From Gemmatimonadota bacterium (GTDB taxonomy: Bacteria > Gemmatimonadota > Gemmatimonadetes > Palauibacterales > Palauibacteraceae), in the NCBI GenBank assembly GCA_022360695.1, contig JAKSCH010000456.1:1-42236 (forward strand): DNA of 42,236 nucleotides, read 5' to 3'. A program made the translations under genes and the position numbers. The notes beneath the pieces are model-generated. The model was not told the origin of the DNA. It saw nothing but the letters and a program-made list of their open reading frames with translations, and did not search any database. This document shows, piece after piece, positions 191-27,146 of this stretch (position 1 is its first letter; each line of letters opens with the position of its first letter).

Positions 191-297
191 ACAATCAACC
201 ACCCGCAGGGTCTACTCGGCCCGGAACCTCCGCACCCTTCTGGGGTCACCACTAGTCTGACCGAAATTTGCCAGGGACTCACCCCGTCTCGAACAGT

Positions 298-312
298 TGT
301 GACACTGTCACA
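298..312. promoter_or_regulatory. perfect 7-1-7 palindrome TGTGACA-C-TGTCACA; candidate operator upstream of the LuxR-type gene
   Basis: The sequence tgtgacactgtcaca was read directly. It lies about 38 nt upstream of the ATG at 350 in a non-coding stretch. Confidence 0.35.
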
Positions 313-349
313 GTGAGCGGTCGCAACGGTTGGTGGTCAAGGAGTCGCT

Positions 350-700
350 ATGCCGCGTATGCATTCGCCTAACCAAGGGTCCGGGGCGTCACTCCTCCGT
401 GACAACGAGTGGCGTGCAGTGGCAACACGCCTCGGCCTGTCGCCTCGTGAAGCCGAGATCACGCGCCTAGCCCTCGCGGACCTTACCGAAGCACGGATCG
501 CTGCAGAGTTAGGTCTATCACCCTCCACCGTACACACGTACACTCGCCGCCTCTATAAGAAGCTCAACGTGGCAAGTCGCGTGCAGCTACTCGTTGCCGT
601 GATGCGAGACTTCCTCGCACACGAGTCTCTCCGACCTGAGGAATGCGCCGCGTTGATTGTCGCACAGATAGACGTCAACTATTCGGACGACGTCTGCTGA
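350..700 (+). CDS. LuxR/GerE-family helix-turn-helix transcriptional regulator (stand-alone DNA-binding domain)
   Basis: LSPREAEITRLALADLTEARIAAELGLSPSTVHTYTRRLYKKLNV is a typical GerE/LuxR C-terminal HTH. An AAGGAG Shine-Dalgarno lies 6 nt upstream of the ATG. Confidence 0.85.
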   Translation: MPRMHSPNQGSGASLLRDNEWRAVATRLGLSPREAEITRLALADLTEARIAAELGLSPSTVHTYTRRLYKKLNVASRVQLLVAVMRDFLAHESLRPEECAALIVAQIDVNYSDDVC

Positions 701-778
701 GTCACTTGTCCATGTCCCAGTTGACTGCCATCAATAACTGACCCAGTAGAGCGACCCACCACACGTAGCAAGGCCCAA

Positions 779-1435
779 ATGACAACACCTTCTCCGCAGC
801 GCAGCCCTGGCTCGGGCTCTCCGTCTCACCCTCCTCTGAAACGGCATCGCATGTTCCCGATCGTCGTGCTGGCGACAGTCGCGCTGGTAGTGGCAAACGG
901 AATCTTACTCCGCCGTAATGTCGATCTGGTCGTCCGTGTTGAAGCCCTTCAGCAAAATCGCACCCGCTCGATGGTGCTCGAAGTAGGCGCCACCCTGCCG
1001 GACCTCAACGGCATCGGCCTCGACAATCGCCCGATCAGTATCACCTATCCCGACACGAGGGAGACAATCTTCTTCATCTTCTCAACGACTTGTCCACTGT
1101 GCGACGCCAACTGGCCGTACTGGCACGCGTTGGAGGGCAGAGTAGACAGAAGCCGATTTCGCGTCGTGTACGCCAACCTCTCCGACGAGATGTCCGAGGC
1201 ATACGCGCGTCAGCATTCGTTCGGTCTGGACGCCCCCGTCGTGTCGAAGGTCGACCCACAAAGCTCGCTTGACTACAAGCTCAGCCTGACGCCCCTGTTG
1301 GTGCTGGCTGACGAAAACGGTGTGGTGCGATCCGTGTGGCCGGGAATAACGAGAGACGAAGCGCGCCAGGAGATCGAATCGGCATTCGGCGTGTCTCTCG
1401 GAGATGTCACACTCGCTGTCGAAGAGACTGGGTGA
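779..1435 (+). CDS. membrane-anchored TlpA/thioredoxin-fold thiol:disulfide oxidoreductase (CPLC motif)
   Basis: N-terminal TM segment MFPIVVLATVALVVANGILL. The remainder has redoxin-like spacing, with FFIFSTTCPLCDANWP (CxxC) and a late LLVLADENGVV strand. The start is uncertain (ATG 779 or ATG 851). Confidence 0.7.
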   Translation: MTTPSPQRSPGSGSPSHPPLKRHRMFPIVVLATVALVVANGILLRRNVDLVVRVEALQQNRTRSMVLEVGATLPDLNGIGLDNRPISITYPDTRETIFFIFSTTCPLCDANWPYWHALEGRVDRSRFRVVYANLSDEMSEAYARQHSFGLDAPVVSKVDPQSSLDYKLSLTPLLVLADENGVVRSVWPGITRDEARQEIESAFGVSLGDVTLAVEETG

Positions 1436-1561
1436 TTTGGTTGACTAGTTGTGGGTGATCGGTTGTCGGTTACCCAGTCGCGCGTTCTCGGTGTGGCACC
1501 TCCGCGCGCAACCACTGTGTCCCGAGCCCCCCGAGAGGCTCGAGCGAAGGAGGACGGTACG

Positions 1562-1795
1562 ATGAGGCAAATCACTAGCGGACCTGTGAAGGTGTGGTTG
1601 TCGCGCGTCGCAGTCGCGCTGCTCATTGCAATAGCCTTCAGCGCCGTGGGGTTAACTGTTCAACAGGCTCGGGCGTCGGTGTTCCCATGTCACAATGACT
1701 CGTGCAACGCCGGTTCGAACGCTCACTGCAAGCTGTTGGACTGCGACTATTGCGACCAGCAGGAACTAACGTGCAAGGAAAGCGGTCTGCAGTAG
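1562..1795 (+). CDS. small exported Cys-rich peptide precursor (77 aa; 6 Cys in the C-terminal 39 aa)
   Basis: AAGGAGGA lies just upstream of the ATG at 1562. The signal-like N-terminus VWLSRVAVALLIAIAFSAVGLTVQQARA is followed by SVFPCHNDSCNAGSNAHCKLLDCDYCDQQELTCKESGLQ. The antisense ORFs here are Arg/Pro-rich junk. Codon usage is atypical for the window. Confidence 0.6.
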   Translation: MRQITSGPVKVWLSRVAVALLIAIAFSAVGLTVQQARASVFPCHNDSCNAGSNAHCKLLDCDYCDQQELTCKESGLQ

Positions 1796-1920
1796 CATGA
1801 ACAGACTCTGAGGCTCAGGTTCAGCCTGGGTCGGGGACGAGTCGGCCGCTCCGGCCCGGGCGGCCTCGGGTGCGGTTGAGGCAATCGGTCCAGCACGCCG
1901 TGCGGAAGGAGGCAGGACGC

Positions 1921-3219
1921 GTGTGGAAGCACGGAACGATGTTGAGGGACCGCAGGTTGTACGCGGGTCGGACTAGCGCTTGTGGTGACAACAGCGGCAA
2001 GCTGAGCGAACTGCCTCGGATCGTCGCGGCGATCTCCAGTGCAATCGTGGTTGCCTGTGGTGCCGAGAGGAGCGAAGGGAAGACGGCTGCGCGGGCGGAA
2101 GTCACGCGAGTGGGAGATACGACGATCGTCACGACGTACGGTGAGGTGGTGCCGCGCGCCGCGGACGAGGTGGAGCTGCTTTGGCGCAGTCCGGAGTTGG
2201 AGAATCCGGTCGCCCTCCTGCACGCTGGAACGCGGATCGTTGTTGCGGATCGCGACAGAGTGCATTTGCTGGCCGATGACGGCGAGCACCTCCGAACCGT
2301 CGGACGCGCCGGAGAGGGGCCCGGTGAGTTTCTTTACATCGTTTGGGTTGGCCGCCTCGGGCAAGATACCATCGCAGTCCACGATGCAGTGAACCACCGG
2401 CTGTCGTTCATGACGCGCAACGGAGACTACCTCGGATTCGCTTCGATGCGCCCGCCCCGCTCGTACGCCAATCCGCTCAACGCGAAGGAGCGCGGCGGGC
2501 CGGCGCGCGGGTTCGTTGCAGTCGACGGAGGAGTGATTTCGTTCTGGCGCGATGGTGTCTTTTCGGACGGCTCGCGGCCGACCCGCACGGCTCTCGTATG
2601 GACGGATTGGGTGTCGGACACGGCGACTGTTCGTCGGACGTGGGACGGCGAGCGGTGGATCGGTGAAGGGCCGATCGTCGTACCGAGGGAGCTATTCGGG
2701 CCACGCGTGATCTCGGCAATCGCAAGCGACGGGCGGGTGGCCGTGGGTAATGGTACGGACTATTGCGTCACGATTGAGGCGACCAATGGCGTGCCGGTCC
2801 GGAAGGTGTGTCGCAACCGTACAGCGGCGCCGGTAGGAGACGGGATCCGCAGTCCGGATTTGCGGCGAGTCCGAAGTGCGCCACGTCGAGAGGCCCTAGA
2901 GGTGCTTGTTCGACGCCAAGAGTTGCCACGTCGGCTGCCGCACTTTGATCGGCTGTTCTTCGATGAGCAGGGATGGTTGTGGGTGCGTACGCTTGGCACC
3001 GAGCTGTCTGAGGTTTCTCCATATCTGACGCATGACGTCCCGAGCTTGGTTCCCGATTATCGGATGTGGGACGTATACGACGTTGGCGGCGCGCTTGTCG
3101 CCACGATCTCGCTCCCGTCGAACTTCGAGCCACAGACAGCCACGCCGGCGCGGATCTACGGGTTTGTGGAACTGTCTTCGGGTGAAGTCGCCATCGGCGC
3201 TCTTGCCTTGCCGTTCTGA
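1921..3219 (+). CDS. lipoprotein, 6-bladed beta-propeller (TolB/NHL-like) family
   Basis: AAGGAGG lies 9 nt upstream of the GTG at 1921. Lipobox-like AISSAIVVAC. The GRAGEGPGEF motif and repeated strand-like segments are typical of the bacterial 6-bladed beta-propeller family. Only one clean motif was seen, so the family call is moderate. Confidence 0.6.
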   Translation: MWKHGTMLRDRRLYAGRTSACGDNSGKLSELPRIVAAISSAIVVACGAERSEGKTAARAEVTRVGDTTIVTTYGEVVPRAADEVELLWRSPELENPVALLHAGTRIVVADRDRVHLLADDGEHLRTVGRAGEGPGEFLYIVWVGRLGQDTIAVHDAVNHRLSFMTRNGDYLGFASMRPPRSYANPLNAKERGGPARGFVAVDGGVISFWRDGVFSDGSRPTRTALVWTDWVSDTATVRRTWDGERWIGEGPIVVPRELFGPRVISAIASDGRVAVGNGTDYCVTIEATNGVPVRKVCRNRTAAPVGDGIRSPDLRRVRSAPRREALEVLVRRQELPRRLPHFDRLFFDEQGWLWVRTLGTELSEVSPYLTHDVPSLVPDYRMWDVYDVGGALVATISLPSNFEPQTATPARIYGFVELSSGEVAIGALALPF

Positions 3220-3243
3220 GCCCGCGGCGCGTACGGCTAATTG

Positions 3244-4023
3244 ATGATCCGGGGGAAGACGACCGGCGTCGTTGCAGCATGCGTGCTCGCCTGTCTCGCA
3301 GTGAGCTCGCTGGAGGCCCAGGACGACCGTGGATGCGCAGTGTACGGCGTCGTTGTCGATGAGGTTTCTACGAGGGGCATCGGTGGCGCTTCGGTGTGGG
3401 TCGAGCGCGGCGATGGCGAGCTGGTGGTGGGGAAGGCCACGTCGAAAGACGGTGCATTTTCGTTCGACCTCGACGATTGCGGATTCACCGTCGTCCGGGT
3501 GGATATGCTTGGGTACGAGTCGATGCGACAGTCGGTCGAACTCGAAACGGGCCAGGTCGAAGTTCAAATGACCCTGCGGCTTCCAAGGGCGCCTCTTCAG
3601 CTTCAGGAGCTCGCCGTCGCGATCCCACGGTCGCTGCGTCTGCAACGAGCGGGGTTCTACGCTCGCAGAGCGTGGGTCGAATCGACCGGTCAGGACTACG
3701 CGAACTTCTTCGGTCCTGATGAAGTTAGAAGTAGAGCGCGAGCGCAACACACCGTTGGCAGGATTGCTCTATCATCGCGCATCCGGACCGTCTATAGTGG
3801 CTGTCGACCCTCCGTCTATCTAAACGGCCGGCGGATCGCGGCGCCGACGCGACGCGCACTGTGGGAACGCGTCGACAGAGCCGTTAGTACGTCAGACGTG
3901 GAAGGCATCGAAATCTATCGAGCATTGTCGGTTGCCGTGCCAGAGGAGTTTCGGGACTACGATTCGACGCGGTGCGGTGCCGTCGTTGTCTGGACGAAGG
4001 AGGGGGGTGCCGCAACGCCTTAG
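3244..4023 (+). CDS. exported carboxypeptidase-regulatory-like (CarboxypepD_reg) domain protein with TonB-plug-like C-terminal region
   Basis: Signal peptide GVVAACVLACLAVSSLEAQ. VYGVVVDEVSTRGIGGASVWV...TSKDGAFSF is CarboxypepD_reg-like. The C-terminal VEGIEIYRAL...GAVVVWTKEG resembles a plug-domain end. Confidence 0.7.
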   Translation: MIRGKTTGVVAACVLACLAVSSLEAQDDRGCAVYGVVVDEVSTRGIGGASVWVERGDGELVVGKATSKDGAFSFDLDDCGFTVVRVDMLGYESMRQSVELETGQVEVQMTLRLPRAPLQLQELAVAIPRSLRLQRAGFYARRAWVESTGQDYANFFGPDEVRSRARAQHTVGRIALSSRIRTVYSGCRPSVYLNGRRIAAPTRRALWERVDRAVSTSDVEGIEIYRALSVAVPEEFRDYDSTRCGAVVVWTKEGGAATP

Positions 4024-4063
4024 GTGGAGTCTGGCGACGTGAACACGATGCACTTCGCGCAGC

Positions 4064-4610: not shown

Positions 4611-6023
4611 TTAGGGATTCTCGTCGTTCGAGCTCGATGAGCTCTCTTCCGCTTCCGCCAGCTCCCTCGCCGCCTCGCGCGCGGCCACCAGCTCCTCGAA
4701 CTCGGTTTGATCCAGATAGGTCACGTCGACCCACAGGTGCGCCATCTCATCGACCGTGCGATCCCCCCAGTCGACCCACTGCTCGGGGTCGGGGTTGTTG
4801 GGGTTCTCGGCCGTGTTGTCGTGCCACGCCGTGATGACCAGCGTCGTCCCCGCAGGGAGGAGCGGCGCGGCGTCGTCCTCGTAGATGTAGTTGACGTGCC
4901 AATTCCACTGGAAGTTGTCGACCTGGCTGATCAGCTCTTTGCGACCGTCCGGATAGATTGCTTCGAGCGACATCGCCTTGCCGCGCATGTGCATGTGCGG
5001 CTGGAAGTTCTCGAGTCGAGCCGGCCAGCGGAGCACGTGGTGGTCCTGGGTCACCGCGATCTGGTTCGGCGGGATGTCCAGACCTGTCGCGCCCGTCGCG
5101 TTGAAGAACATGAGCCGCGTCCGGTTGTCGGGCTCCTGACCCTTCGGGTAGAACCACACGCCCAGCTCGACGTAGCTGTCCACCACCTCTTTGCCCATGG
5201 CGTGGAGGTGGACCTCCCAGCGGATCCGGGAGTTCGGGAGCATGATCTTGCCCGCGCCGTCCGGGAAGACTTCGCCTTCCTTCCCGACCGCCCACTCCAT
5301 GAACAGCCCGCCGCCGCCCATGGCGCCGCCACGCGTGCTCGCCTGGACGATGCTCGCGGCCATCGGACTGTCCTCCTCATCCTGCTCGAGGAAGGCGAGT
5401 ACGTGGTGGGTGATCGTCCGCGCGTCGTTGCCGGCCGGCTTGATCTCGATCGCCTTGACCCAGCGGGGCTCGGTGAGACCGGTCGGCGTCACGGGTCGCC
5501 ACCACTTGTCCTGCGTCTCGGCCGCGAGCGTGTAGGGCTCGGAGGCGACCACGAGATCCGGCTCGCCGTACTCGTCGGCCAGCCGCCAGGCGTTCGGATC
5601 CGGGAACTCCGCGGGCGGCGGGAGGTCGGCCGGGGCGCCCTCGACGCGACCGCCGTCGATCCAGGCGACGATCGTCTCGATCTCTTCGTCGGTCAGCCCG
5701 CGGTCGTTCTTGAACTCCTGGATCCCGACGGTTCGATCGATGTGCCACGGTGGCATCACCCGCTCGGTCACCTTCTCGCGGATCCGCGAGGCCCAGCGGT
5801 ACGTGTCGCGGTACGTGAGGAGCGACATGGGCGCGATCGAGCCCTCCTGGTGACACTCCTGGCAGTTGGTCTGGAGGATCGGCATCACGTCGCGGTTGAA
5901 CGTGACCGCGGCGTCGCCCTCCTGCGCCTGGAGTCCGGTCGCGCCCGCGACCGTCGTGGCGACGAGCGCTGCGCCTGCGGTCGCGATCCAACGCGTCGCG
6001 CGCTTCCGCGTGTCGTCTCTCAT
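4611..6023 (-). CDS. exported c-type cytochrome domain fused to a PHM/DBH-like (copper type II ascorbate-dependent monooxygenase-like) domain
   Basis: Signal peptide, then FNRDVMPILQTNCQECH (CxxCH) and MPPWH. Later come ITHHVLAF, WEVHLHAMGK, QPHMHMRGKAM and DEMAHLW, arranged like the CuH (HH..H) and CuM (HxH..M) ligand sets. The CDS itself is very solid. The domain call is made from memory. Confidence 0.8.
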   Translation of the reverse strand: MRDDTRKRATRWIATAGAALVATTVAGATGLQAQEGDAAVTFNRDVMPILQTNCQECHQEGSIAPMSLLTYRDTYRWASRIREKVTERVMPPWHIDRTVGIQEFKNDRGLTDEEIETIVAWIDGGRVEGAPADLPPPAEFPDPNAWRLADEYGEPDLVVASEPYTLAAETQDKWWRPVTPTGLTEPRWVKAIEIKPAGNDARTITHHVLAFLEQDEEDSPMAASIVQASTRGGAMGGGGLFMEWAVGKEGEVFPDGAGKIMLPNSRIRWEVHLHAMGKEVVDSYVELGVWFYPKGQEPDNRTRLMFFNATGATGLDIPPNQIAVTQDHHVLRWPARLENFQPHMHMRGKAMSLEAIYPDGRKELISQVDNFQWNWHVNYIYEDDAAPLLPAGTTLVITAWHDNTAENPNNPDPEQWVDWGDRTVDEMAHLWVDVTYLDQTEFEELVAAREAARELAEAEESSSSSNDENP

Positions 6024-10474: not shown

Positions 10475-12589
10475 ATGAGGCTCAGAGCCGCGCCCGGCGC
10501 AGCACTTATCGTCTTGATGTCGCAGCTCGGCCCGAGCGCGACGTTCGTGGAGGGGTTGTCGGCCCAGGCGACGCGAGCGGTCACGGTGGATATCGGCGCG
10601 CGCGACCCGGCCGTATCGCCGGACGGATCGAAGATCGCGCTCTCGATCCTGGGCAAGATCTGGACGATCCCCTCGACGGGCGGCGAGGCGACGCAGATCA
10701 CGTGGGGACCGGGCTGGGACACGCGGCCCGCCTGGTCGCCCGACGGCCGTTTCCTCGCCTATGCGGGCCGAGGAGCATCGGGCACGGACCTGATCATCCG
10801 GAATCTCGCGACGGGGGCGAGTCGCTACCTGCACCGCGGACCCGCCGCCATCGGTCAGATCGCGTTCGACCCGTCCGGCGGTCGGATCTATTTCATCAAC
10901 GACCTCTCGCAGTACGACGCGCACTTGTGGCGGATCGGACTCGATGGGGATGGTCTCGAGCAGCTGACGTTCACGCAGAACTGGCACGAGTGGTCGTTCG
11001 CGATCACGCCCGACGGCCGACGCGCGGTGCTCGAGTCCGGTCGCTACGGCGGCGCGGATCTGTACGAGCTCGATCTCGAGAACGGGACGGCGACGCGTCT
11101 CACGTCGACGCCCGCTCGCGAGATGAGCGTGGCCTTGAGTCCGAGCGGTGACGCGCGCGCCCACGTCGAGACACACGACGGCGTGGATCACGTCGTCGTG
11201 ACGGACTCGGACGGTTCGGAGCGCCGGCCCCATACGAGCCCGTTCGATCAGAAGCAGCTGGCGTACGGTCCCGATGGTGCCCTGTACGTAGCCGGTGGGC
11301 GTCGCCTCATGCGGCTCGACACGGAGACCGGAGCTACGACGCCGATCCCGTTCGAGGCTCGTTTCCGGCTCCCGAGCGTGCCGGTCGACGACCTGCTCAT
11401 CACGAACGTGCGGTTGTTCGACGCGACGAGTGACGAAGTCGTGGAGGCCGCGTCCGTCTGGGTGCGCGACGGTCGGATCGCCGAGATCGGGCCGGACGTG
11501 GCGCCGCCCGCGACCGATACGGTAGTCACGATCGATGGCGCCGGGCGGACCCTGCTCCCGGGTCTGCTGGACAACCACTACCACTACTGGTCGCCGCACG
11601 CCGGCGCGGACTTGCTCGCGGCCGGGATCACCACGATCCGCGATCCCGGAAGCCAGATCTCCGACGCCATGGACTACAAGGACGCCATCCGGCTCGGGAT
11701 CGCCTCGGGGCCCGAGATCTTCACCGCCGGTCCTCTGATCGACGGACCCGGCGGATACCACCCGCTGGTCGACGTGAGCATCGAGGACCCCGCGGCGGCC
11801 GCGCCGCTCGTCCGCGCGTTCAAGGCGCAGGGCGTGGACCTGCTCAAGGTGTACTTCCAGCTCGACCGCGACGTGATGGAGGCCGTGATCGCCGAGGCGC
11901 GCGTTCAGGGGCTCCCGGTCACCGGGCACATCGGGGTCCGCGCGAGCTGGGAGGAGGCGATCGACGCGGGGATCGACGGGTTCAACCACATCCGGGTGTG
12001 GCGCGACTTCCTCGACCCGGCGATCCAGGTCGACGGACGCGACGAGTCGCTCGACGGCGGTCGGAACCCGATCGGTCGGATGCAAGCCGATTGGCGCGAG
12101 ATCGACCCCGAGAGCCCTCGGGTCCGCGCGCTCCTCGCCCGGATGGCCGAGACCCGGACCGCGCTCGACCCGACGCTGTTCATCCAGGGCATCGAGGACC
12201 GAGCCACGGCGCCGGGCCGCGAGAGCCGCAACCGGACCCGGTTCTCGCTCGAGCAGTTCGGGACCGCCGCCCAGAGCTTCGAGCGGATGAAGACGTTCGT
12301 CCGTCTCGCGGTCGAGGCCGGTGTGCCGCTCCTGGCCGGCACCGACAACGTGTCGTTGTTCGACGAGCTCGAGGCCTACGCCGAGGCGGGGGTCGCGAAC
12401 GCCGACATCTTGCGCGCGGCCACGATCAACGGCGCGCGGTGGCTGGGTCGGGATGCGGAGTTCGGCACGGTCGAAGTAGGGAAGCGCGCCCACCTCATCC
12501 TCGTGGATGGCGATCCGCTCGCGGACATCGCCGAGCTTCGGGAGATCGATCTCGTCATCAAGGACGGGGTCGTCGTGTTTCGCCGGTGA
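10475..12589 (+). CDS. TolB-like beta-propeller (PD40 repeats) fused to an amidohydrolase-family domain
   Basis: Repeated DPAVSPDGSKIA / RPAWSPDGRFLAY / ITPDGRRAV segments. These are followed by LLPGLLDNHYHYW and C-terminal GTVEVGKRAHLILVDGDPLADI, typical of metal-dependent amidohydrolases. Confidence 0.9.
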   Translation: MRLRAAPGAALIVLMSQLGPSATFVEGLSAQATRAVTVDIGARDPAVSPDGSKIALSILGKIWTIPSTGGEATQITWGPGWDTRPAWSPDGRFLAYAGRGASGTDLIIRNLATGASRYLHRGPAAIGQIAFDPSGGRIYFINDLSQYDAHLWRIGLDGDGLEQLTFTQNWHEWSFAITPDGRRAVLESGRYGGADLYELDLENGTATRLTSTPAREMSVALSPSGDARAHVETHDGVDHVVVTDSDGSERRPHTSPFDQKQLAYGPDGALYVAGGRRLMRLDTETGATTPIPFEARFRLPSVPVDDLLITNVRLFDATSDEVVEAASVWVRDGRIAEIGPDVAPPATDTVVTIDGAGRTLLPGLLDNHYHYWSPHAGADLLAAGITTIRDPGSQISDAMDYKDAIRLGIASGPEIFTAGPLIDGPGGYHPLVDVSIEDPAAAAPLVRAFKAQGVDLLKVYFQLDRDVMEAVIAEARVQGLPVTGHIGVRASWEEAIDAGIDGFNHIRVWRDFLDPAIQVDGRDESLDGGRNPIGRMQADWREIDPESPRVRALLARMAETRTALDPTLFIQGIEDRATAPGRESRNRTRFSLEQFGTAAQSFERMKTFVRLAVEAGVPLLAGTDNVSLFDELEAYAEAGVANADILRAATINGARWLGRDAEFGTVEVGKRAHLILVDGDPLADIAELREIDLVIKDGVVVFRR

Positions 12590-12600
12590 CGCTGGCCGCG

Positions 12601-13338
12601 ATGACGACGAGCCTCCTCGTCGCGCTCCAGGTAGAGCCGAGCGGAGGGCTCGCTTCGGCGTTGTCGGACAACCCGCTCCTCGCCATCGGGGCGCTCTTCG
12701 GGGCGGGTGTCCTCACCAGCACGAACCCGTGCATCTACCCGATGATCCCGATCACGGTATCGGTGATATCGGGCACGGCCGGAGAAAAGCAGACCCGGGG
12801 TCGCGTCGTGGGCCTGACGCTGACGTACGCGATGGGTCTGGCGTTGTTCTACGCCCTCCTCGGCATGATCGCCGGGCTGTCCGGCTCCGTGTTCGGGTCG
12901 ATCGGCGCGAGCCCGTGGGCGCTGTTCGCGATCGGCAACCTGCTGCTCTTCTTCTCGCTCTTCATGCTCGATGTCTTCCCGGTCCCGATCCCGAAGCGGC
13001 TGTTGGCCTGGGCGAGCGACCGGGAGGGTGGTTCCTACAAGGCCGTATTCGTGCTCGGCGCGACGTCGGGCATCGTCACCGCTCCGTGCGGCGCCCCCGC
13101 GTTCGCCGTCGTCCTCACCTGGGTGGCCGCGACGCAGGCCGGCCTCATGGGATTCGTGTATCTGTTCGCGTTCTCGCTCGGGATGACCGCGCTGCTGATC
13201 GTGGTCGGATTGTTCTCGGGCGCGTTGGCCGTGCTCCCGAAATCGGGCACCTGGATGATCTGGATGAAACGGCTCGCCGCGCTCATCATGATCGGGATGG
13301 CCGAGTTCTACCTCATGCGCGCGGGGTACTTCCTTTGA
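12601..13338 (+). CDS. ccdA: cytochrome c biogenesis / thiol:disulfide transporter CcdA (DsbD transmembrane-domain family)
   Basis: Polytopic membrane protein with the two conserved Cys in LTSTNPCIYPMIPI and IVTAPCGAPAF. An alternative GTG start at 12586 overlaps the upstream stop. Confidence 0.85.
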   Translation: MTTSLLVALQVEPSGGLASALSDNPLLAIGALFGAGVLTSTNPCIYPMIPITVSVISGTAGEKQTRGRVVGLTLTYAMGLALFYALLGMIAGLSGSVFGSIGASPWALFAIGNLLLFFSLFMLDVFPVPIPKRLLAWASDREGGSYKAVFVLGATSGIVTAPCGAPAFAVVLTWVAATQAGLMGFVYLFAFSLGMTALLIVVGLFSGALAVLPKSGTWMIWMKRLAALIMIGMAEFYLMRAGYFL

Positions 13339-13868
13339 TCGACCGACGTCCGTGGCGAGCCACCGTGGCCTCGCTGTTCATCCTTCTCGCGGCCGGGCTG
13401 CCGCTGCGGGGACAGACCGGTGTGGGACAGGTCAGCCTTCCGATCGGGACGCCCGGCCCGGACGCGGCGGTCCAGGATCTCGAGGGCAACGACGTGGGGC
13501 TGCTCGACTACGCGACGGATCGCCCTACGCTCATCGAGTTCTGGGCCTCCTGGTGCGAGCAGTGCGAAGCGCTCCAGCCGCAGATCGATCAGATCCAGGA
13601 AAGCTGCGGCGAGCAGGTGAGCGTGGTCGCGGTCGCGGTCGCCGTCGCCCAGTCGCTCCGTCGCGTGAGACGACACGCCGAGGCGCACGGCGCCGGCTAC
13701 CCGTTTCTATGGGACGCCGCGGGAGACGCGGTGCGCGCCTACGAAGCGACGACGACATCCATCGTCGTCATCCTCGACGAAGTCGGCACGATCACGTATA
13801 CCGGCGTCGGCCCCGACCAGGATCTCGTGTCCGCGGTCGGGGCCGTCGCGCCGGAGTGCTCGCCATAG
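13335..13868 (+). CDS. TlpA-family periplasmic thioredoxin-like protein (WCEQC)
   Basis: The TTG start at 13335 overlaps the ccdA stop (TTGA). Signal or anchor segment ATVASLFILLAAGLPL. LIEFWASWCEQCEALQPQI is a thioredoxin-fold CxxC motif. Confidence 0.8.
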   Translation: MIDRRPWRATVASLFILLAAGLPLRGQTGVGQVSLPIGTPGPDAAVQDLEGNDVGLLDYATDRPTLIEFWASWCEQCEALQPQIDQIQESCGEQVSVVAVAVAVAQSLRRVRRHAEAHGAGYPFLWDAAGDAVRAYEATTTSIVVILDEVGTITYTGVGPDQDLVSAVGAVAPECSP

Positions 13869-24458: not shown

Positions 24459-24653
24459 CTCACGCCGGATAGACCGCGCCGGGGCCCCCGGGTGGGTCGG
24501 CCGCCGCCTTCTCGCGGGCGCTGGCCCACTCGTCTCGAAACGTCGTATTTTCGAACGGTCGACTCGCGTCTCGAGCGACGCGACGCGTTCGACCGGAGCC
24601 TCCGAAACCGGCTTCCGGCCGCGAGTCGGAGTCCGAGACATGGGGTGCGTACC

Positions 24654-27146
24654 ATGAGAATCGCCGCCGCGGCGCTCGGCGCCGCCGGTCTTTCGCTCAG
24701 CTTGGTCCCCGGCACGGGTCCATCGGTACCTCCCAGCGCTCCGCAGCCGCTCGTGGCTCCCGCGATCGACACGTTGTCGGTCGAAGTGGGACGCGCGGTC
24801 GTGGCCGGGACCTGCACGCGGTGTCACAACGACCGACGTCTTCGCGGTAACCTGTCGCTCGAGACGTTCGACGTCGCCGCGCCCGAGGCGCAGTCCGACG
24901 TCGCCGAGCGGATGATCCGCAAGCTCCGCGCGGGGATGATGCCGCCCGCCGGCGTGCGTCGGCCCAGCGACGACAGCCTGACGACGCTCGCCGCCGTGCT
25001 GGAGACCCGTCTGGATGCGCAGACGACGCCCACACCGGGCCGCAGGACGTTTCAGCGTTTGAATCGAGCCGAGTACTCGCGGACGATCCGCGACTTGCTC
25101 GATCTCGACGTGGACGCCGGAGACTACCTCCCGCTCGATACGAAGAGCGCCAACTTCGACAACATCGCGGACGTCCAGCTCCTCTCGCCCACCTTGATGG
25201 ACGCGTATCTGCGGGCCGCGGGCGAGATCAGCCGCTTGGCGATCGGCGACCCGGAGGTCACGGCGAGCGAGGCGACGTACAAGGTCCCGCGGTGGACCTC
25301 GCAGGCCGACCACGTCGAAGGTGCGCCGTACGGTACGCGCGGGGGGACGGCCGTCCTGCACAACTTCCCGGCGGATGGCGAGTACGTCTTCCGCGTCTCG
25401 TTCCACCACGAGACGACGGGTGCCCTGTACGGCAACGGCAAGGGCACGCTCCACACGGCCGATGGTCCGGAGCAGGTCGAGATCTCGGTCGACGGCGAGC
25501 GCGTCGCGCTTCTCGACATCGATCGTTGGATGCACGTCTCGGATCCCGACGGCGTCAACCTTCGCACCGACCCGATCCGCGTGACCGCCGGGCCGCGCCG
25601 CGTCGCGGCGGCGTTCATCCGAACGTTCGAGGGGCCGTTGCAAGATCTGGTTTCGCCCCACGACTGGTCGATCGCCAGTACCAGCATCACGGACGCGTAC
25701 GGGTTCACCACGCTACCGCACCTCCGCGATCTCGCGATCACCGGACCGTACCATCCGACCGGCGTGTCGGAGACGCCGAGCCGCCGGGCCGTGTTCGCGT
25801 GCACCCCGGAGCGGCCGGCCGAGGAGACGCCCTGCGCCTCACGCATCCTCTCCCGTCTGGCGACACGCGCGTACCGGCGTCCCCTCACCGACGAGAACCT
25901 CGACGCGCTCATGGCGCTGTACCACGAGGGCGCCTCGACGGGAGGGTTCGAGGCCGGCGTCCGACTCGCGCTCGAAGGCATCCTCGCGAGCCCGCACTTC
26001 GTCTTCCGTTTCGAAGAGCCGACCGACGACGCGACGGGTGATGCGTACCGGATCGACGACTTCGATCTCGCGGCGCGGCTCTCGTTCTTCCTCTGGGCCG
26101 CGGGGCCGGACGACGAGTTGATGGAGGTCGCCGCGAGCGGGGAGCTCGGCGACCCCGAGGCGCTCGATCATCAGGTCCGCCGGATGCTCGACGATCCGAA
26201 GGCGGAGGCGCTCGCCACGCGCTTCGCCGCGCAGTGGTTCCGGCTCCAGGATCTCGAGAAGATCCACCCGGACGTGCGGCTGTACCCCGACTTCGATCAG
26301 CAGCTCAAGGAGGCGATGGCCCGCGAGACCGAGCTCTTCTTCTACTCGCTGGTCCGCGACGACGCGAGCGCCCTCGATCTGCTGACGGCCGACTACACGT
26401 ACGTCAACGAGCGCCTGGCTCGACACTATGGCATCGCGGACGTGGTCGGGACCGAGTTCCGACGGGTCCGGATCCCCGGCTCGGAGCGACGCGGTCTGCT
26501 GGGCCACGGGAGCGTGCTCACGTTGACGTCGCACGCGAGTCGGACGTCTCCCGTCCTGCGCGGGAAGTGGGTGATGGAAGTCCTCCTCGGGACTCCGCCC
26601 CCGCCTCCCCCACCCGACATCCCGGACCTCGAGGCGACCGAAGAAGCGGTGGACGGACGTCTGCTGTCGGTGCGGGAGCGGCTCGAGATGCACCGGTCCA
26701 GCCCCGCGTGCTCGTCGTGTCACCGCGTGATCGATCCCATCGGACTGGCGCTCGAGAACTTCGACGGGACCGGCGAGTGGCGGATCAACGACAACGACTC
26801 CGCGATCGATGCGGCGGGCGAGCTCTACGACGGCACGCCGATCGAGAGCGCCGCGGATCTCAGAGCCGCTCTGCTACGTCGTCCGACTCCGTTGATCCGG
26901 ACGTTCACGGAGAACCTGATGGCGTATGCGCTGGGGCGCCGACTCGAAGCGTACGACATGCCGACGGTGCGGAAGATCGCGCGCGACGCGGAAGCCGAGG
27001 GATATCGCATGTCGGCGTTCATCCACGGCGTCGTGCGCAGCCCGGCGTTCTCGATGAAGACGATCGACCCGGTCGTCGACGAGCAGGATGCGGGAGACGA
27101 AGCAGACGCCGAGGATGCGCGGCGCGGGCGTCACGAACGGCATTAG
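24654..27146 (+). CDS. DUF1592/DUF1595/DUF1587/DUF1588/DUF1585-type multi-domain protein with CxxCH motifs
   Basis: Signal peptide. CTRCHNDRRLRGNLSLE near the N-terminus. PHFVFRFE, FFLWAAGPDDEL, HYGI, LLGHGSVLTLTS and CSSCHRVIDPIGLALENFD match the Planctomycete-type family architecture. Confidence 0.9.
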   Translation: MRIAAAALGAAGLSLSLVPGTGPSVPPSAPQPLVAPAIDTLSVEVGRAVVAGTCTRCHNDRRLRGNLSLETFDVAAPEAQSDVAERMIRKLRAGMMPPAGVRRPSDDSLTTLAAVLETRLDAQTTPTPGRRTFQRLNRAEYSRTIRDLLDLDVDAGDYLPLDTKSANFDNIADVQLLSPTLMDAYLRAAGEISRLAIGDPEVTASEATYKVPRWTSQADHVEGAPYGTRGGTAVLHNFPADGEYVFRVSFHHETTGALYGNGKGTLHTADGPEQVEISVDGERVALLDIDRWMHVSDPDGVNLRTDPIRVTAGPRRVAAAFIRTFEGPLQDLVSPHDWSIASTSITDAYGFTTLPHLRDLAITGPYHPTGVSETPSRRAVFACTPERPAEETPCASRILSRLATRAYRRPLTDENLDALMALYHEGASTGGFEAGVRLALEGILASPHFVFRFEEPTDDATGDAYRIDDFDLAARLSFFLWAAGPDDELMEVAASGELGDPEALDHQVRRMLDDPKAEALATRFAAQWFRLQDLEKIHPDVRLYPDFDQQLKEAMARETELFFYSLVRDDASALDLLTADYTYVNERLARHYGIADVVGTEFRRVRIPGSERRGLLGHGSVLTLTSHASRTSPVLRGKWVMEVLLGTPPPPPPPDIPDLEATEEAVDGRLLSVRERLEMHRSSPACSSCHRVIDPIGLALENFDGTGEWRINDNDSAIDAAGELYDGTPIESAADLRAALLRRPTPLIRTFTENLMAYALGRRLEAYDMPTVRKIARDAEAEGYRMSAFIHGVVRSPAFSMKTIDPVVDEQDAGDEADAEDARRGRHERH

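Follow-up and report, generated by a model that had tools for sequence, protein, structure and literature searches.

The window analyzed here, that is, the whole stretch of 42,236 nucleotides (nt) of contig JAKSCH010000456.1 (assembly GCA_022360695.1, Gemmatimonadota bacterium, forward strand), carries close to its left end a block of genes that we read, with a probability of about 0.65, as a conserved extracytoplasmic module in which a six-Cys mini-protein exported by the Sec pathway is paired with a dedicated, membrane-tethered thioredoxin-fold disulfide oxidoreductase or isomerase. The universal core of the module consists of two genes, one for the thioredoxin-fold protein and, following it, one for the 77-amino acid (aa) peptide precursor (1562-1795), which is preceded by an AAGGAGG Shine-Dalgarno sequence 8 nt upstream. 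The core features are as follows.

779-1435, + strand: predicted signal-anchored thioredoxin-fold oxidoreductase of the ResA/TlpA class, 218 aa, with the motif CPLC at nt 1091-1102.
1562-1675, + strand: signal peptide of the precursor, 38 aa, ending in TVQQARA before a Ser.
1676-1795, + strand: predicted mature peptide SVFPCHNDSCNAGSNAHCKLLDCDYCDQQELTCKESGLQ plus stop codon, 39 aa, acidic, with six invariant Cys.

We inspected 11 distinct loci, the window counted in, holding 12 thioredoxin-family genes whose products are 27-47% identical to the window protein. These loci were reached either through the thioredoxin-family gene or through a beta-propeller lipoprotein gene that follows the pair in the window, and in no case did the peptide guide their choice: a propeller-based genome scan gave L028, a thioredoxin-motif metagenome scan with a 6-sequence alignment gave L088 and L089, and look-ups of thioredoxin-family proteins gave L090, L091, L093, L096, L097, L099 and L101. 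All 12 thioredoxin genes are followed directly, on the same strand and within a few hundred nt, by one to three small open reading frames (ORFs) with a Sec-type signal peptide. These downstream peptides total 17, with six Cys each (eight in L028), and one of the ORFs, in L096, is uncalled in the public annotation. The same ORF filter gave 3 hits in the remaining 934 kb of the DNA retrieved, which corresponds to a rough P of ~1e-32 for 12 out of 12. This recurrence in relatives indicates that the gene arrangement is more than chance, and it supports an earlier note on this DNA that had seen a dedicated thiol:disulfide oxidoreductase beside an exported Cys-rich peptide. Profiles of the two peptide groups described below found no match in ~80 propeller-only loci.

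The closest counterpart of the window block is found on the metagenomic contig L090, which encodes P0017, the best relative of the thioredoxin-fold protein (46-47% identical). The gene order is that of the window, and the identities to the window proteins are as follows.

L090 thioredoxin-fold protein: 47%.
L090 peptide, 83 aa: 43% (blastp 5.8e-18), all six Cys kept.
L090 propeller: 51%.
L090 protein with a CarboxypepD_reg domain, directly after the propeller: 45% (1.7e-65).

The two peptides have a common core, CHNDSCN[AS]GSN..C....CDYCD...CKES, in which 17 of the 24 aligned residues are identical, 10 of these 17 through different synonymous codons. These synonymous codon differences indicate that it is the protein sequence of the peptide that has been conserved. 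The earlier note had staked its proposal on such conservation in a relative and on synteny of the neighbouring genes, and L090 provides both. A word-index protein search with either the peptide or the thioredoxin-fold protein had returned nothing but the query. The orphan status of the peptide was nevertheless rejected as a sensitivity limit of that search, because HMMER and contig L090 gave relatives; the word-index search missed the L090 peptide despite the exact shared heptapeptide CHNDSCN, and its "no homolog" outcome, taken alone, would have led us to deny the conservation of the peptide wrongly. Contigs L006 and L007 also carry the identical peptide, but both are 99.9% identical to the window and thus come from the same organism, so that they hold no evolutionary information.

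These results bear directly on the explanation that the block is part of a classical cluster for a ribosomally synthesized and post-translationally modified peptide (RiPP) or a class II bacteriocin, with further genes beyond the window edge, or else a set of unrelated neighbours around a spurious small ORF. The block begins 200 nt into the contig, which leaves upstream genes out of sight, the word-index search found no homologs, and close homologs of the propeller occur in unrelated contexts, all of which would fit. The partial ORF at 1-202, however, lies on the opposite strand and has a normal GC content at third codon positions (GC3), the 11 loci are all devoid of radical-SAM, LanM-type, C39 and double-glycine features, and the precursors bear ordinary Sec signal peptides. 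Chance adjacency and a spurious ORF are excluded by the co-occurrence in 12 out of 12 cases, the orthologous cluster and the protein-level conservation. We regard this explanation as a whole as highly improbable. The earlier note held that this is not a classical RiPP or bacteriocin cluster, and Pfam domains typical of such clusters are indeed lacking in the block and in the related loci, but ABC-type MacB/ADOP permeases do adjoin the pair in some relatives, although not in the window.

The peptides form a family with conserved signal sequences and cores that are hypervariable outside the Cys residues. A [ST]-V-Q-Q-x-x-A motif is common to related precursors just before the predicted cleavage site, which in the window precursor would lie after ARA. 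The 39-aa C-terminal part of the window peptide contains exactly six Cys with the spacing C-x4-C-x7-C-x4-C-x2-C-x6-C. It belongs to group A (n=7), together with the peptides of L090, L099, L088 (two) and L093 (two), which align with six invariant Cys and a C-D-x-C pair. Group B comprises the peptides of L089 (three), L091, L096, L097 and L101 (two), with the spacing C-x4-C-x5-C-x3-C-x-C-x4-11-C and a D-x-D-C-G segment. The overall spacing of the six-Cys peptides is C-x3-4-C-x5-9-C-x3-6-C-x1-2-C-x4-11-C. Some loci carry arrays of two or three divergent paralogous peptides.

Pfam and NCBIfam searches with 10 and 6 peptides, respectively, gave nothing significant. The group B-type peptides resemble squash inhibitors, with a faint match to Pfam Squash (E=0.18). 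Knottins, in which disulfides link Cys I-IV, II-V and III-VI into a threaded knot, follow the consensus CX3-7CX3-6CX0-5CX1-4CX4-13C, and this strict pattern fits 12 of the 16 six-Cys relatives. We take a knottin-like fold of the peptide as a lead suggested by these spacings and by the structural model discussed below, not as a finding. The CS-alpha-beta defensin class was tried and ruled out, since neither the window peptide nor any of the six-Cys relatives fits the pattern of bacterial cis-defensins, CX(2,18)CX3CX(2,12)CX(4,17)CXC (PMC11561630); only the eight-Cys pair of L028 matches it.

The product of 779-1435 has a single N-terminal hydrophobic segment, and its CPLC motif occupies residues 105-108. 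Pfam Redoxin matches it with E=5e-5, just under the gathering score, and the best NCBIfam models stay far from their cut-offs (MauD, 22 bits vs 188.6; ResA, 19.5 vs 170). The public gene call (P0002, 194 aa) uses an alternative start at 851, but we prefer 779 because the anchor of the relatives is preceded by 15-30 residues that include basic charges. A full HMMER search that covered 1.84 billion representative proteins found 2072 relatives at E<=1e-3, of which 393 reach E<=1e-10. Their common architecture of ~190-210 aa has an N-terminal transmembrane segment, an LLRQN..L helix, an NWPxW motif after the CxxC, and an invariant Pro; C81, C84 and P148 are invariant in 65 relatives, and P148 is presumably the cis-Pro, judging from its expected position. 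No Pfam or NCBIfam model covers this subfamily, whose members bear public names such as "hypothetical protein", "peroxiredoxin" or "thiol-disulfide isomerase/thioredoxin".

A profile of the 65 relatives matches the structures of ResA (1.4e-12), StoA, pneumococcal Etrx and CcmG, with E values ranging from 1e-12 to 1e-6. A hydrophobic segment precedes the thioredoxin domain in nearly all relatives and, given the class of the protein and its Sec-exported partner, the catalytic domain is probably located outside the cytoplasm. The inner residues of the CxxC are highly variable across the subfamily. In ~7 of 108 members (P0018, P0021/P0166 and P0031 among them) the motif is replaced by CxxS or CxxA with the first, nucleophilic Cys kept, and even the CALA variant P0166 (L099) is followed by the genes of a six-Cys peptide and a propeller. 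CxxS mutants of protein disulfide isomerase (PDI) are compatible with isomerase, not oxidase, activity. By analogy with these mutants, the CxxS and CxxA members would be compatible with an isomerase or mixed-disulfide role more than with a pure oxidase role.

In L091 and L092, the thioredoxin domain continues in frame, at its C-terminus, into an additional domain with six Cys. A frameshift splits this thioredoxin-family gene (L091, 130-820, and L092) in contigs from two independent samples; the split gene could be a pseudogene, a real fusion or a case of recoding.

The core pair lies in a larger block, whose other features are the following.

298-312, no strand: palindrome TGTGACA-C-TGTCACA, perfect 7-1-7, 38 nt upstream of the LuxR start codon.
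350-700, + strand: stand-alone GerE/LuxR-type helix-turn-helix (HTH) regulator, 116 aa (PF00196, 1.4e-15, 57.1 bits vs 23.5).
1921-3219, + strand: predicted NHL-type six-bladed beta-propeller lipoprotein, 432 aa, with the lipobox Cys at nt 2056-2058 and GEGPGEF at nt 2311-2331.
3241-4023, + strand: predicted exported protein with an N-terminal CarboxypepD_reg domain, 260 aa (Pfam, 1.1e-10, 42 bits vs 32.3).

The first four genes (350-700, 779-1435, 1562-1795 and 1921-3219), which the earlier note had described as a module, are all present at the stated coordinates on the + strand, with intergenic gaps of 78, 126 and 125 nt. They are indeed co-directional, but the note missed the fifth co-directional gene, which starts 21 nt past the propeller gene. 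GC3 is 0.65-0.72 in all five genes and ~0.8-0.9 in well-supported genes elsewhere in the window, and the GC content is 61% for the block region vs 66-72% for the rest of the contig. The shared GC3 of the five genes marks the block at ~200-4060 as a single compositional unit. From its composition, the block (200-4060) looks like a foreign or atypically evolving island. No flanking direct or inverted repeats were found around the low-GC3 region, and no tRNA, Rfam family or integrase at its edges. The intergenic regions flanking the peptide gene show structure no greater than shuffled sequence (z = -1.1 and -0.3), a promoter and terminator scan remained at chance level, and a tblastn search of plasmids gave no match.

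The propeller gene has a GTG start behind GGAAGGAGG and encodes a lipobox IVVAC before a Gly. Its AlphaFold2 (AF2) model has a mean predicted local distance difference test score (pLDDT) of 80.4 and a predicted template modelling score of 0.80. Foldseek matches it with probability 1.0 to the NHL domains of Brat, TRIM2 and TRIM3 (E ~1e-11 to 1e-10) and to BF0058 (4raa); further matches are BVU_1028 (3s9j) and, more weakly, PAL (3fvz, E=1.2e-7) and BtuG. The model predicts that the protein adopts a six-bladed NHL-like fold. DUF5128 (PF17170) reaches 18.7 bits vs the 22.9 cut-off for the window propeller, and the L099 relative passes with 30.6 bits; we know of no function for DUF5128. The earlier note had likened the pairing to propeller lipoproteins of Bacteroidota that are often encoded beside small NVEALA-type peptides; a literature search found nothing on NVEALA or DUF5128. 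Homologs at 36-58% identity all have the lipobox. The catalytic propeller of PAL has a three-His zinc site plus Tyr and Arg. Nine homologs of the window propeller share two invariant Cys and one invariant His (H115); with a single invariant His, the PAL-like zinc site is absent, and PAL-like catalysis was ruled out for want of a conserved His triad among these nine.

The propeller family is multi-copy in Gemmatimonadota and Rhodothermales. A propeller follows the thioredoxin-peptide pair in 4 of the 11 loci, all Gemmatimonadota-type (window, L090, L099/L100 and L028), so that the partnership proposed in the earlier note recurs, but as a lineage-specific accessory outside the universal core. 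Two further loci have propellers near other small Cys-containing peptides. L051 (2061-9716) has four propeller paralogs in 8 kb around a 72-aa, eight-Cys signal-peptide ORF (5156-5371, - strand), together with a 289-aa membrane protein and, as read by eye, an apparent pair of extracytoplasmic function (ECF) sigma and anti-sigma factors; it has no thioredoxin-family gene. L018 (2828-4681), from a Longimicrobium metagenome-assembled genome, has a 69-aa signal-peptide ORF with four Cys upstream of a small lipoprotein and a propeller, and an HMA-like CxxC protein, also recognized by eye, is encoded ~600 nt further upstream.

The CarboxypepD_reg protein gave no Plug, barrel or NCBIfam match and does not qualify as a TonB-dependent receptor, which would combine a Plug domain with a 22-strand barrel; its C-terminal half was likened by eye to a TonB-receptor plug, an assumption of ours to which the Plug domain search gave no support. 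Homologs of this protein adjoin propellers in L052, L035 and L083. The loci with Acidobacteria-type neighbours, recognized by matches above the cut-offs of the acidobact_VWFA and ADOP models, have other genes in this place, namely a DsbA-like protein and ADOP/MacB permeases that follow the pair. L101 encodes the DsbA-like protein (27.8 bits vs 25.6) plus an ADOP/MacB permease, and L091 an ADOP permease (709.8 bits vs 622.3). The position of these permeases after the pair suggests that the peptide, once folded, is pumped out of the periplasm in the manner of the Escherichia coli enterotoxin STII. In the window itself, no MacB-type gene is found in the block.

The LuxR-type gene has an AAGGAG Shine-Dalgarno sequence 6 nt upstream and a GC3 of 0.65, matching the block. 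Only residues 30-82 of its product match any domain, and there is no autoinducer-binding, sensor or receiver domain. No LuxR homolog was found beside any other module inspected, and regulators of other families stand upstream in its place, an HTH_18 protein in L096 and, in L101, an AraC-domain response regulator, which makes the LuxR-type gene at most a local add-on. The GerE HTH named by the earlier note is thus genuine, but the gene probably has a local regulatory role and does not belong to what is conserved in the unit. The palindrome at 298-312 has one exact match in 42 kb, with 0.64 matches expected by chance at <=3 mismatches; it is a candidate operator or promoter element, only tentatively placed in the unit.

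A regulator immediately upstream in several loci, the perfect palindrome before the LuxR gene and the eight-Cys peptide beside the apparent sigma/anti-sigma pair of L051 (by eye) would also fit a signalling peptide, a pheromone or envelope signal sensed via the adjacent transcription factor, with the propeller as receptor or sequestering partner. We consider this quite improbable. The regulators belong to differing families and are absent from several loci, a bare LuxR HTH of 116 aa cannot alone sense an extracytoplasmic peptide, and the block has no histidine kinase or membrane sensor. Arrays of two or three divergent paralogs also suit diversifying effectors better.

For the pairing of an exported peptide with its own disulfide enzyme, we propose the following mechanism; gene conservation, co-occurrence, the fusion and the fold classes are observed, whereas the membrane topology, redox direction, disulfide pattern and activity in it are inferred. 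The precursor would first be exported by Sec and cleaved after ARA. In the oxidizing periplasm, the thioredoxin-fold protein would then act on the peptide Cys, most likely as an enzyme dedicated to isomerizing or proof-reading its disulfides, though it may also oxidize them, until the peptide reaches one defined three-disulfide fold, probably knottin-like. Finally, the compact, protease-stable and acidic mini-protein would act outside the cytoplasm as a competition toxin, an inhibitor or a signal. In the Gemmatimonadota lineage, the propeller and CarboxypepD_reg proteins may act as partners in the envelope, serving in binding, immunity, presentation or handling at the outer membrane, a role suggested by their conserved adjacency; in the Acidobacteria-type relatives, the MacB/ADOP pumps might be the handling partners.

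Several points weigh against this interpretation. Expression of the peptide and its disulfide bonding are predictions, and most cores are acidic, unlike classical cationic antimicrobial peptides. The window peptide misses the strict knottin consensus, at loop 2 alone (x7), and the AF2 single-sequence model of the mature peptide has a low confidence (pLDDT 69); Foldseek matched this model to six PDB entries, all of them cystine-knot peptides, but none significantly (E>=3.3). The 11 loci were inspected out of hundreds to thousands of subfamily members. Close homologs of the propeller (48-58% identity; P0004, P0005, P0006 and P0010) lie in other contexts without a thioredoxin-family gene or peptide, which means that the propeller family is not restricted to the module and is a poor guide to it. 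The block contains no gene for an electron partner, be it DsbB or the CcdA or DsbD from which the TlpA/ResA/CcmG class draws its reducing power, and no immunity gene, C39 exporter or modification enzyme. Last, the nearest solved relatives of the thioredoxin-fold protein, ResA, StoA, Etrx and CcmG, are reductases, not oxidases, so that the 779-1435 protein may act in the reducing direction, which would fit a metal-binding role of the peptide as well.

In such a metal-handling module, the acidic six-Cys peptide would be a periplasmic or secreted thiolate binder, acting as a chaperone, buffer or metallophore for Cu, Zn or Cd. The ResA/TlpA-like protein would keep its Cys in the reduced state, the service that TlpA performs for the copper proteins ScoI and CoxB, and the propeller and CarboxypepD_reg/TonB-receptor-like proteins would capture the loaded peptide or take it up again, much like BtuG together with BtuB. 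Besides the kinship of the thioredoxin-family proteins with extracytoplasmic reductases, the acidic, Cys-rich cores with their C-x4-C and C-x2-C pairs are consistent with this role, as is the match of the propeller model to surface lipoproteins of the BtuG type, by which a TonB-dependent transporter is fed. In L028, an ORF of 989 aa that by eye looks like a receptor overlaps the propeller gene at its end, a CarboxypepD_reg/OMP_b-brl_4 protein is encoded 1.7 kb from the L097 module, and in L018 an HMA-type CxxC protein (by eye) is encoded close to the Cys peptide. Nevertheless, exactly six invariant Cys in a fixed knottin-type framework, with the other core positions free, are typical of structural disulfides, and the peptides have no conserved His or Met ligands. 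L101 combines a DsbA-like oxidase with a MacB/ADOP exporter, and the 3241-4023 protein is without a barrel or detectable Plug domain. CarboxypepD_reg and TonB-type genes are moreover very common in these phyla, so that adjacency to them is weak evidence. We therefore hold metal handling to be unlikely, though less so than signalling, and retain the disulfide-folding interpretation.

Two observations concern the arrangement of the modules. In L028 (1053-6954) the module is tandemly duplicated, and each copy consists of a thioredoxin-family gene, a gene for a 75-aa peptide and a DUF4876 lipoprotein gene (weak CarboxypepD_reg match); the propeller gene and then the receptor-like ORF, read by eye, come after the duplicated module, and the two peptides are very acidic, with net charges of -8 and -9. 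Transposase or integrase genes (rve, DDE), at 1496-1813 (- strand) in L093 and at 405-755 and 7294-7597 in L101, directly flank the modules of these two loci, and this position hints at mobility of the module.

Elsewhere in the window, the gene at 4611-6023 (- strand), which is convergent on the block and has a normal GC3, encodes an exported protein of 470 aa in which a CxxCH haem motif (CQECH) at the N-terminus is accompanied by the His-rich motifs HHVLAF, HLHAMG and HMHMRG, and has no Pfam family above threshold. A second thioredoxin-fold protein of 453 aa is encoded at 12507-13868 (+ strand); it has a C-terminal Redoxin/AhpC-TSA domain (E=1e-13) and an architecture unrelated to the 779-1435 family. 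The 884-aa product of 24492-27146 (+ strand) contains the planctomycete-type domains PSD2, PSD3, PSD4, PSD5 and PSCyt3 (DUF1585, 1587, 1592, 1595 and 1588).

The core association is robust and unannotated, and its general principle has precedents. If the proposed function is correct, these loci represent a widespread, unannotated class of ribosomal, Sec-exported three-disulfide mini-proteins, with their folding enzyme, in two abundant and poorly studied soil phyla. The thioredoxin subfamily, with its hundreds to thousands of members, would then be a genome-mining handle for short Cys-rich genes that gene callers often miss, and the natural foldase could aid the bacterial production of knottin-type scaffolds for drug design. 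The "bacterial knottins" that stand in databases without a structure would also become directly testable. More tentatively, and with more doubt than conviction, we suggest that these are the first recognizable biosynthetic modules for bacterial knottin-type peptides, a large family, as yet uncurated, of Gemmatimonadota and probably also Acidobacteriota that combines a conserved signal, a hypervariable six-Cys core, paralog arrays, a private isomerase and envelope partners. The gene logic is similar to that of conotoxins, with a conserved signal and a hypervariable Cys core in arrays of one to three paralogs, sometimes flanked by transposase or integrase genes.

Among known systems, the thioredoxin-fold protein is closest to ResA, StoA, CcmG, TlpA and Etrx, with which it shares a CxxC, an invariant Pro and, by prediction, an N-terminal anchor; each of these known proteins has a narrow range of substrates. 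Its subfamily differs from that class by its own LLRQN juxtamembrane helix and NWPxW, and by scores far below the curated NCBIfam cut-offs, and no cytochrome c maturation, sporulation or Cu-centre genes are found near 779-1435. MauD is a membrane-anchored thioredoxin-like accessory of the small, very disulfide-rich subunit of methylamine dehydrogenase, encoded in the same cluster. The 779-1435 protein, however, reaches ~10% of the TIGR02661 equivalog cut-off, there is no tryptophan tryptophylquinone context, the peptide is unrelated, and no mau genes occur among the scanned ORFs of the window. The propeller resembles DUF5128/BF0058-type and NHL propellers in its predicted six-bladed fold, its lipoprotein nature and its multiple copies in the host phylum.

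The peptides resemble knottins such as squash trypsin inhibitors and spider toxins in having six Cys within 30-40 residues, with a spacing inside or near the consensus; group B comes close to squash inhibitors through its D-x-D-C-G segment, at no statistical significance. The great majority of known knottins come from eukaryotes and are not known to have a foldase encoded alongside them, and loop 2 of the window peptide is longer than in the strict consensus. The KNOTTIN database lists "bacterial knottins" without an experimental structure (PMC5753296); our literature search found no paper describing the module, and this database paper was its one mention of bacterial knottins. Bacterial cis-defensins are likewise secreted, signal-peptide-bearing and have six to eight Cys, but they are cationic whereas our peptides are acidic, and the main text describing them does not mention thioredoxin (PMC11561630).

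The nearest functional parallels are PedC/PapC of pediocin PA-1, BdbA/BdbB of sublancin 168 and BlpG of Streptococcus thermophilus, dedicated oxidoreductases that mature disulfide-containing bacteriocins in Firmicutes (PMC4919988). As in the module, a thioredoxin-fold CxxC protein is encoded beside the gene of a secreted ribosomal peptide, a likeness by description and not by sequence comparison; in the bacteriocin systems, correct disulfides require this protein or form better with it. Their peptides have one or two disulfides, double-glycine leaders or other modifications, a C39/ABC exporter and an immunity gene, whereas the module has an ordinary Sec signal peptide, six Cys, diderm hosts and a separate ResA-like subfamily, with no exporter or immunity gene in the window. 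The E. coli enterotoxin STII is exported by Sec, oxidized by DsbA and expelled by MacAB-TolC (PMC5985334). It is also a small, Cys-rich, Sec-exported peptide, and an ADOP/MacB permease gene comes right after the peptides in L091 and L101; STII, however, relies on the housekeeping DsbA and an unlinked pump, whereas the module has a co-encoded, dedicated redox partner and, in the window, a propeller instead of MacB. The dedicated oxidoreductase beside a disulfide peptide and the route through Sec, oxidation and MacAB are thus already known; what is new is the phyla, the ordinary Sec signal, the six-Cys knottin-like frameworks, the large ResA-like marker subfamily and the propeller and CarboxypepD_reg partners.

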